DNA from: a virus
IMG/VR virus record: IMGVR_UViG_3300007513_000984
Location: 25,670 to 89,669 of that record
Strand: one strand, 5' to 3'
Length of the DNA: 64,000 nucleotides
The translations under genes were made by a program, and so were the position numbers. Shown here in pieces: positions 28,964 through 50,156 of the stretch (its first letter is position 1; each line of letters begins with the position of its first letter). The notes under the pieces are model-generated. The model made no database searches and was not told the DNA's origin. It saw nothing but the letters and a program-made list of their open reading frames with translations.

Positions 28964-28981
28964 AAAAAATACTAAAACCAC

Positions 28982-29010
28982 TTGACTTTGATGGTCCAGT
29001 ATGTTAGTAT
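28982..29010 (+). promoter_or_regulatory. sigma70 promoter of the candidate sRNA
   Basis: TTGACT-N17-TAGTAT with extended -10 TG. Confidence 0.7.
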
Positions 29011-29016
29011 TATATA

Positions 29017-29140
29017 ATCAACGGAAGCCTATGTCTCCTCTAAACCTCTCTCATCGACACTGGCCTCTAGTTGATACTCTATCAGAACGATAGAGGAGTT
29101 CGACAAAAGGCCCGGTACCAGAAATGGTATCGGGTTTTTT
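29017..29140 (+). ncRNA. Candidate ~125-nt sRNA with CU-rich anti-Shine-Dalgarno loop
   Basis: Bounded by a promoter and a terminator, with no sense ORF; three hairpins. Confidence 0.65.
29109..29140 (+). terminator. Rho-independent terminator
   Basis: CCCGGTACCA-GAAA-TGGTATCGGG followed by T6. Confidence 0.85.
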
Positions 29141-29186
29141 CTTTTTTGTCTAAATACATCAACGTATCTTTATGAGAGAAATCCCA

Positions 29187-29438
29187 ATGACTAGTAAAAA
29201 CTATGAAAATTTGAAATGGTTTGCGACATTTATGTTTGTTCTTGCTGGAGTATTGATATCTCTGAATATAGAACAATCTAAATGGGCTTTTCCATTATTC
29301 GCAACAGGACATATGACTGTGCTGTTCGTATTTTTAAGATTAAAGGATAAGCCAATGATTTTTCAGAATAGTTTCTTCTTGGCTATTGATTTCTTAGGAA
29401 TATATCAGTGGTTATTGGCGCCTATATTTTTTGTTTAA
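29187..29438 (+). CDS. Small 3-TM membrane protein (PnuC/SemiSWEET-like)
   Basis: Three hydrophobic segments, ends LGIYQW; GAGAG SD favours ATG 29187; late motif CTAAATA at 29150. Confidence 0.55.
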   Translation: MTSKNYENLKWFATFMFVLAGVLISLNIEQSKWAFPLFATGHMTVLFVFLRLKDKPMIFQNSFFLAIDFLGIYQWLLAPIFFV

Positions 29439-29859: not shown

Positions 29860-29874
29860 GGTGTTCTCATTCTA

Positions 29875-48963: not shown

Positions 48964-49665
48964 TTATTTGAAGATTTTTTTGATAGTTGTACAGAAAGTG
49001 TTGGTCCCCTTAGGGTCCAAGGGTAATGAGTTCTCGTTAATCCACTCAGGAAACTTCTCAAACAGTGTTTTCCACTGAATCATTTCATTATATAGGTCTA
49101 CTATCTTCTTTAGATGTTCAGTAGTATTAGGATAATTGTGTTCTCTTTTTAGTTTATTGACTCTTTGTTTACATTCATCTAAGTCTGATAAATCTCGGTC
49201 AATTGCGTCAATTATATGTTCAAAAGATTCTATATCTTTGAATTTGTTAATTAGGAACTGATGATGTTTGTTCTTGGGTTTGCCATCATACAGAAACATA
49301 ATCTCTTGTAAATCATAATACAATGCCTTTACTGGATTGATACTTTCTCTGTATCTTTTCATTATTTCATCAATAGCAAATTCTGAACTTTCGGTAGATA
49401 AGTTTTCGAGTACACTTATAGCCAGTATATTAATACGTTGACTACTTGCTGATAATGCCTTCGTTGAATCTTCTTTAACTTTCGCAATGACAATATCCAC
49501 AAGACGAGCCTCGGTATCATCTAAATCTCTTTTTAGATACTCTACATGGCCAGGGCTTGAATGAACGATTGTTCTTCTTAGGCTATCCGTAACTCTTTCA
49601 CCTTTAAGAACTTGTTTACAGTCACGGATGAATCGTTGTCTTTCTAAATTGATAATATGATTCAC
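48964..49665 (-). CDS. Hypothetical helical protein, 233 aa
   Basis: GAGGAG SD, GTG start, CTAAATA late motif near 49696; no recognised motif. Confidence 0.7.
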   Translation of the reverse strand: MNHIINLERQRFIRDCKQVLKGERVTDSLRRTIVHSSPGHVEYLKRDLDDTEARLVDIVIAKVKEDSTKALSASSQRINILAISVLENLSTESSEFAIDEIMKRYRESINPVKALYYDLQEIMFLYDGKPKNKHHQFLINKFKDIESFEHIIDAIDRDLSDLDECKQRVNKLKREHNYPNTTEHLKKIVDLYNEMIQWKTLFEKFPEWINENSLPLDPKGTNTFCTTIKKIFK

Positions 49666-49718
49666 TATGTCTCCTCAAAACTTCTCTTACAGTGATATTT
49701 AGGATGATTTGACTAGTC

Positions 49719-50156
49719 TCAAAGTGACGATATAATTTCTTTAATGATTTTTAATTTTTTCTTTCTGAATAAGGTACGTCTTGTACCGGGATGTAATGGT
49801 TTGGGCACATAGTTAGTTTCAACCCATGCATATCCGCCTGATTCGTGATTTGTTTTTGGTATGAATTCTTTTTTAACTAATATAACAAAAGAGTAATAAC
49901 TGAATTCGCCATTCCTTGTATGATATTGGTCTAATGGATATATCTTAATGACATCTTTTTCAACACTTATATCTAATTCTTCTGTTATTTCTCGTAGTAA
50001 GGTTTGTGCTATGTTTTCTTTATCTTCAACTTTCCCACCAAAGAATCCCCAATTTCTTGGAAATGAACCATCTAATGCTCTCTGTTGAAGAAGTATTCTA
50101 TTTGTGTCTTTTGCGACTATACAACCGCCTGCCGCTCTAATTCTTGAAACTTTCAT
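49719..50156 (-). CDS. NUDIX hydrolase
   Basis: Nudix box GGKVEDKENIAQTLLREITEELD. Confidence 0.9.
   Translation of the reverse strand: MKVSRIRAAGGCIVAKDTNRILLQQRALDGSFPRNWGFFGGKVEDKENIAQTLLREITEELDISVEKDVIKIYPLDQYHTRNGEFSYYSFVILVKKEFIPKTNHESGGYAWVETNYVPKPLHPGTRRTLFRKKKLKIIKEIISSL

Follow-up and report, generated by a model that had tools for sequence, protein, structure and literature searches.

A marine giant-phage genome fragment carries what we regard, with high confidence, as a real and separately transcribed small RNA (sRNA) gene of a new family. Judged from sequence, the family is an uncatalogued one carried by uncultured marine giant phages related to T4. We give an even chance to the reading in which its product acts as an early, trans-acting sRNA that masks Shine-Dalgarno (SD) sequences, with a gene for a 233-aa protein as its chief phage target in this clade. 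Both the anatomy of the gene and the pattern of its conservation bear on this reading, as does a complementarity to the leader of the 233-aa gene that lies far above background.

The stretch of DNA analysed here (the window) comprises 64 kb of IMG/VR record IMGVR_UViG_3300007513_000984, which is 89.7 kb long and has a completeness of 21% (CheckV). Its T4-type proteins include an SbcC/gp46-like nuclease, a baseplate hub protein, a SegE-like GIY-YIG nuclease and a gp15-like tail sheath stabiliser, and the sequencing runs sharing the record's sequence are marine. By gp46, the closest cultured relatives are the giant phages PA5oct, Phosso and Atu_ph07, at an identity of only 41-49%. With gp46 as bait we fetched 80 related loci, and we call close relatives those whose gp46 is at least 80% identical to that of the window phage. 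An exact 20-mer search returned 41 contigs representing 25 distinct sRNA versions from close relatives, while a degenerate pattern search returned about 18 more distant giant-phage contigs with the sRNA.

Anatomy of the sRNA Gene

The initial annotation of this region described a promoter, an RNA of about 125 nt and a terminator, and all three are present between 28982 and 29147 (table 1). Within the extended -10 element, TG lies at 29002-03 and TAGTAT at 29005-10, and upstream of the promoter an A-rich stretch directly follows the stop codon of the Hc1-like gene. We place the probable 5' end of the transcript 7 nt past the -10 element, at the foot of hairpin P1, and the probable 3' end within the U-tract. 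The minimum free energy (MFE) fold of 29016-29146 consists of three hairpins at -48.4 kcal/mol (z of -5.5 against shuffles), and it reproduces exactly the previously described stems ATCAAC/GTTGAT, GCC/GGC and TGTC/GACA together with their 20-nt loop. This apical loop of P1 (29036-29055) is rich in C and U and free of G (UCUCCUCU-A-AACCUCUCUCAUC), with an unpaired probability of at least 0.9. An alternative fold, pairing the loop with AGAGGAG of P2, was rejected, being 11.6 kcal/mol worse. With promoter and terminator motifs of its own and a loop this accessible, the description of the locus as a self-contained sRNA gene exposing an anti-SD-like loop is borne out.

Table 1. Positions of the sRNA gene, its neighbours and its predicted target in the window.
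Feature	Position	Strand	Remarks
Hc1 histone-like gene, 58 aa	28787..28963	+	stop 19 nt before the -35 of the sRNA gene
sigma70-type promoter	28982..29010	+	-35 TTGACT 28982-87, 17-nt spacer, extended -10 TGnTAGTAT 29002-10
Predicted sRNA transcript	29017..29147	+	about 125-130 nt; both ends predicted
Hairpin P1	29017..29075	+	pairs 29017-25/29066-75, 29027-29/29062-64, 29032-35/29056-59; displays the loop
sRNA core TGTCTCCTCTAAACCTCTCTCA	29032..29053	+	same in all 25 distinct close relatives
Hairpin P2, CUCUAUC/GAUAGAG	29077..29095	+	varies, expanded in relatives
Intrinsic terminator	29105..29147	+	G+C-rich stem GGCCCGGUACCA/UGGUAUCGGG(UU), stem 29105-29140, then U-tract
CTAAATA (29150-56) and GA-rich SD region AUGAGAGA (29172-79)	29150..29179	+	complementary over 8 nt to the loop's 3' half
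PnuC-like membrane protein gene, 84 aa	29187..29438	+	three predicted transmembrane segments (read from sequence)
Predicted target gene, 233 aa	48964..49665	-	GTG start; all-helical protein
Predicted target site AGAGAAGUUUUGAGGAGACAUAG	49665..49687	-	includes the SD (GAGGAG) and the first base of the GUG start
CTAAATA late-type promoter-like motif	49696..49702	-	37 nt before GTG; putative function

Searches against catalogued RNAs agree with the novelty of the family. Rfam 15, run over the whole window, returned a manA motif elsewhere and nothing on the sRNA; over the sRNA region at E values up to 10 it returned terminator-driven noise only, and across 26 related loci there was no match at the family gathering thresholds. 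The Rfam families unmatched by the sRNA include C4, DicF, RsaE, IhtA, pnuC/NAD+-II and other riboswitches. Similarly, blastn searches of cultured phages with the sRNA region and with a member of the wider family gave no match, and in PA5oct, the nearest cultured phage by gp46, the syntenic place has no intergenic space. Bacterial genome contigs yielded 16 pattern matches, mostly of high G+C by eye, which we read as chance since they are scattered and the hairpin context is absent.

Public RNA sequencing was consulted as assembled contigs. Three runs had no cover over 28974-29241, and a fourth (oligo-dT) held only the core and promoter-side sequence of a relative; all four are uninformative on expression. 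Elsewhere in the window, an ORF-free stretch of about 600 nt on the minus strand (29860-30463), beside the SegE-like GIY-YIG gene and with a TTGACA-17-TAGTAT promoter at 30463, had contig cover in 4 of the 4 RNA runs examined.

Conservation and Covariation of the RNA Family

The sRNA element is found in every close relative. A -35 element of the form (GC)TTGAC and a TGnTAnnAT element are kept in all relatives, as is the terminator, whose two arms change in concert. Hairpin P1 covaries: 6 of its 13 pairs show compensatory changes, 92.6% of cells are paired, and the covariation score of 0.383 compares with 0.245 in shuffles (none of 500 reaching 0.383) and with only 0.05-0.13 when the pairing partners are slid. 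The many G-U pairs in P1 indicate in turn that the plus strand is the RNA strand.

The loop behaves quite differently from the stem which carries it. In the wider family UGUCUCCUCU-N-AACCUCUC is invariant, the sole variable base being 29042 (A, C or U); this holds in the 25-sequence P1 alignment and also in a 22-sequence alignment of the whole RNA, where mean column identity is 51%. The middle of the molecule is plastic, and the version in the window is the shortest (131 nt). In the approximately 18 distant members the promoter is of the same type; a 5' hairpin that covaries carries the loop GUGUCUCCUCUCAACCUCUCUCA, and a small hairpin (CUCUC/GAGAG) and a terminator are present as well.

Most close relatives (e.g., L107:1050-1215) have an extra module that is absent from the RNA of the window, with stem GGUGG/CCACC and a second invariant loop, GUUAGACCUUAACGUA, followed by AAAAAGCACAAAAAGG. 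The GGUUAGA of this module could form a kissing interaction with UCUAAACC of the first loop, with one A bulged.

Predicted Pairing with the Leader of the 233-aa Gene

The long complementarity reported in the initial annotation proved to be real. Apart from the query itself, only 49665-49687 (the 21/23 match) is hit in the window when up to three mismatches are allowed, no second hit arose in any of 100 shuffles, and the match spans positions -22 to +1 of the minus-strand gene 48964-49665, which starts with GTG; the RNA is therefore antisense to the SD and start of that gene, as had been claimed. We compared it with the ribosome-binding sites (RBSs) of 78 roughly called gene starts of the record. 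In loop-versus-RBS energy the 233-aa gene reaches -21.4 kcal/mol, far outside a background with a mean of -7.4 (sd 3.3) and a runner-up at -14.3. Cofolding of the whole molecule gives a net gain of -20.1 kcal/mol at the 233-aa start, as against a mean of -3.8 (sd 2.5) for the other 77 starts and -8.1 for the next best, so that the leader stands apart from all other gene starts with z of about -4 to -6. No other non-self site anywhere in the 89.7-kb record pairs as well.

CU-rich loops match any SD, and this counts against the target reading. The shorter complementarities noted earlier, of 10 nt to gene 792-1703, 9 nt to the 428-aa gene and 8 nt at 29172-79, do exist, but the SDs of this phage are AGGAG-like and these 8-10-nt matches fall within the normal spread of RBS scores; only the long match carries weight, as the initial annotation had itself cautioned. 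Of the non-self sites with 19/24 pairs or more in 1.13 Mb of related DNA, nearly all are leaders of the 233-aa gene; the exceptions are the antisense strand of the sRNA gene in a distant clade and a 19/24 site in a coding region (38517+) with a homologue in one relative.

Among close relatives, eight distinct leader variants keep 18-21 of 22 pairs (counted by hand), with several wobble-compatible changes and some mismatches; they pair as well as the leader in the window or better (-21 to -32.3 kcal/mol), and the intergenic DNA beside the leader diverges. The pattern changes with phylogenetic distance. In the group at 73-79% identity and in more distant clades there is an SD-level match only, with the loop equally conserved. 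The loop is constant wherever the long target match exists; the variant with U (L216) sits on a 9-kb contig without the target gene, and the clades with the C variant are without the extended target. When 95 ortholog groups from seven genomes are ranked by complementarity to the loop of the respective genome, the 233-aa family comes second with a mean z of -1.8, which is suggestive, although no universal pattern emerges. When targets were sought across the genome of a relative (342 kb, 92% complete), no phage site stood out. Since the extended target is lost in distant clades while the loop is kept, the 233-aa gene does not explain why the loop is invariant throughout the family. Extended pairing is confined to one clade and the loop is invariant far more widely, which leaves room for another, conserved partner.

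The predicted target gene sits in a cluster of structural genes (neck and tail genes). A TAAATA motif 20-37 nt upstream of it is kept in all relatives, and if the CTAAATA of the window is used as a promoter, the 5' UTR would be about 25 nt long and almost wholly duplexed. The encoded protein is soluble with an all-helical model (pLDDT 85), is confined to these marine phages and is conserved in all seven related genomes examined; it has no match in Pfam, PHROGs, PDB sequences or the ESM Atlas, and the model has no fold match in the PDB and a single viral structure match.

CTAAATA occurs 22-60 nt upstream of four gene starts (29150-56, 49696-49702, 16083 and 62595). Structural genes instead show TATAAATA, and CTAAATA may represent a weaker or separate late-type promoter class. 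Directly 3' of the predicted target gene lies the manA RNA motif (Rfam RF01745; 48691-48897 on the minus strand; 56.1 bits against a cut-off of 55.2). No gene follows it on that strand, and here it is no obvious 5' leader.

A Model for the Action of the sRNA

On the reading we favor, the sRNA would be made, and made early, by the host sigma70 RNA polymerase from a strong early-type promoter behind the Hc1-like gene, and its transcription would stop at its own intrinsic terminator. The RNA would begin at the foot of the covarying hairpin, whose only job seems to be the display of the invariant CU-rich loop, and this loop would base-pair in vivo with GA-rich translation-initiation regions. In the window phage and its close relatives the outstanding partner would be the short leader of gene 48964-49665; the duplex would bury both the SD and the GUG start, the 30S subunit could then not bind, and translation would be repressed or delayed. 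Secondary targets may be the sites of 7-10 nt at the PnuC-like gene, gene 792-1703 and the 428-aa gene, as well as host mRNAs.

Possible Host Partners of the Invariant Loop

The loop is equally invariant in clades without the target, and an unchanging host partner, whether bound by a decoy or present as host mRNAs, is therefore an alternative, less probable explanation. The main rival to masking of a phage leader, unlikely in our estimation, is that the RNA is a decoy or mimic whose invariant loop binds a constant host component instead of a phage mRNA. Candidates are proteins that bind pyrimidines, among them ribosomal protein S1 and Rho; Hfq; or SDs generally, for which the loop would be a rival of the 16S anti-SD. 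In that case the match to the 233-aa leader would be incidental and confined to one clade, or the leader would serve as a sponge for the RNA. This proposal accommodates several observations: the loop stays the same among clades in which gp46 identity is no more than about 55-70%, conservation of the extended phage target does not reach those clades, the 342-kb, 92%-complete relative has no standout phage site, and the loop consists of C and U with G absent. Nevertheless, the host partner is hypothetical, and the match in the window has a length and a placement on an RBS that forbid dismissing it, and it recurs in relatives; furthermore, CU loops displayed on hairpins are the classic format of a base-pairing seed. 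In a fuller version, which we hold to be quite unlikely, the loop stays invariant through a host component, with the RNA as an SD/anti-SD competitor or an S1/Rho decoy and the 233-aa leader as a late off-switch sponge.

Host mRNAs might alternatively be the main targets of an early takeover sRNA that silences them via their SDs, the phage leader match being secondary. The early-type promoter fits such a role, as does family-wide invariance of the loop in the absence of a family-wide phage target, and DicF and VpdS are known to act on host mRNAs (PMC12197685). In contrast, no bacterial genome was found with a related RNA, the 16 scattered pattern matches being without hairpin context, and we judge this scenario distinctly improbable.

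Neighboring Genes

In the close clade the gene following the sRNA is PnuC-like, of 80-88 aa, in all 24 distinct relatives with enough sequence, and the gene upstream varies; the 84-aa gene of the window has a sub-threshold match to Pfam NMN_transporter (PnuC). This constant neighbor first suggested a riboswitch or attenuator acting in cis as the leader of the transporter gene that follows, a reading that was dropped once the wider family emerged and that we now consider very improbable. Besides the invariable position of the element directly upstream of the PnuC-like gene, a leader would explain the layout of promoter, structure, terminator and gene, and the PnuC-like SD of relatives is in every case complementary to a portion of the loop (-9 to -15 kcal/mol). 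However, downstream genes differ in the wider family: most encode a protein of about 60 aa, and in one distant clade a promoter is followed by a 381-aa ORF, provisionally DNA-ligase-like. The sRNA is thus an independent gene and no leader. Moreover, a conserved promoter-like CTAAATA intervenes between the terminator and the PnuC-like gene, no antiterminator fold was found (the alternative fold being the one 11.6 kcal/mol worse), no Rfam riboswitch matched, and variable stems topped by an invariant loop do not resemble an aptamer.

The 84-aa protein resembles a PnuC-like unit of one-third size, and a NUDIX gene is present at 49719-50156. The downstream protein of about 60 aa is conserved in the wider family (..KKGGK..PEGAITDEGQMNYKFRR), for example at L187:4904-5104 and L161:4710-4880.

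On the upstream side, an Hc1 histone-like gene immediately precedes the sRNA in 9 of 18 members of the wider family, as it does in the window. The usual location of the sRNA is thus directly behind an Hc1-like gene, whose transcripts it may also terminate. In the window the Hc1-like gene could share the sRNA terminator, and as the sRNA gene holds the only terminator behind the Hc1-like gene, the sRNA could also arise from read-through transcripts.

Two further proposals can be dealt with briefly. The idea of a toxic 233-aa protein with this RNA as its type-I-like antitoxin, which the initial annotation had suggested, did not survive: the complementarity to the RBS is all that speaks for it, whereas the putative toxin is neither small, hydrophobic nor adjacent, being a soluble helical protein of 233 aa whose gene is 20 kb distant, follows a late-type motif and is surrounded by neck and tail genes. 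The protein is conserved in 7 of 7 related genomes examined and matches no toxin family in Pfam, PHROGs or solved structures, and we find the idea scarcely credible. Equally far-fetched is a tiny peptide (M/V-SPLNLS-H...) from 29031, possibly beside an RNA role: every relative has ATG, TTG or GTG at its start and the sole variable loop base, 29042, is a synonymous third position of Leu (CTA/CTC/CTT), but the five remaining third positions of conserved codons never vary, which argues for constraint at the RNA level, the frames range in length from 10 codons to over 60 and have unrelated tails, and the SD-like purines sit inside stem P1. In the window this frame has 20 codons (MSPLNLSHRH..., 29031-29093 on the plus strand) and starts in P1.

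Comparison with Known Regulatory RNAs

Bacterial sRNAs that mask SDs through C/U-rich loops include the hairpins of Staphylococcus aureus RNAIII and RsaE. As in these, an apical C/U-rich loop on a stable hairpin is predicted to pair with the SD and start of a target, the RNA ends at an intrinsic terminator and it probably has several targets. In contrast, the window sRNA has no sequence or Rfam relation to them, is encoded by a virulent-type giant phage, displays a much longer loop (20-22 nt with two CU tracts), and has as its best predicted target a gene of the phage itself.

The c4 antisense RNA of phages P1 and P7 (Rfam C4) uses loops that pair with the RBS of a phage gene, and it is processed from the transcript of its own target and acts within an immunity operon. 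The sRNA of the close clade likewise lies just upstream of a gene whose SD can pair with it, but it has its own promoter and terminator, its main predicted target is 20 kb away and it does not match the Rfam family. Location immediately behind a coding gene, here the Hc1-like one, recalls 3'UTR-located sRNAs with their own promoter, of the DapZ/MicL type; unlike these, the gene upstream differs in some relatives. The same gene brings to mind Chlamydia, where the IhtA sRNA is associated with Hc1. This likeness is one of neighborhood only: the window loop has no notable pairing at the Hc1-like start, which is not among the top RBS scores, and there is no match to Rfam IhtA.

To our knowledge, hardly any work has explored regulatory RNA in virulent and giant phages. 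In one review, the phage sRNAs covered stem mostly from temperate phages and prophages (PMC12197685). Trans-acting examples are DicF of the Qin prophage and VpdS of vibriophage VP882, the latter reported to control phage replication (PMC12197685). They share with the window sRNA the basic arrangement of a phage gene for a base-pairing RNA that blocks mRNA translation, an activity which for the window sRNA is predicted. Yet DicF and VpdS, for which experimental work exists, belong to temperate phages or prophages, whereas the family described here belongs to uncultured T4-related giant phages and has no homology to them.

Implications

With its own promoter, a covarying stem and an unchanging seed, the family bears textbook signatures of function, and its concrete predicted target, a leader of 25 nt preceding a conserved gene of late type, is open to testing. 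A further puzzle is why none of the phage targets identified to date matches the loop in conservation. Should the host-component reading prove true, the loop would be part of an RNA device for the global takeover of host translation or termination. The family offers a simple entry to the RNA-based timing of phage gene expression.
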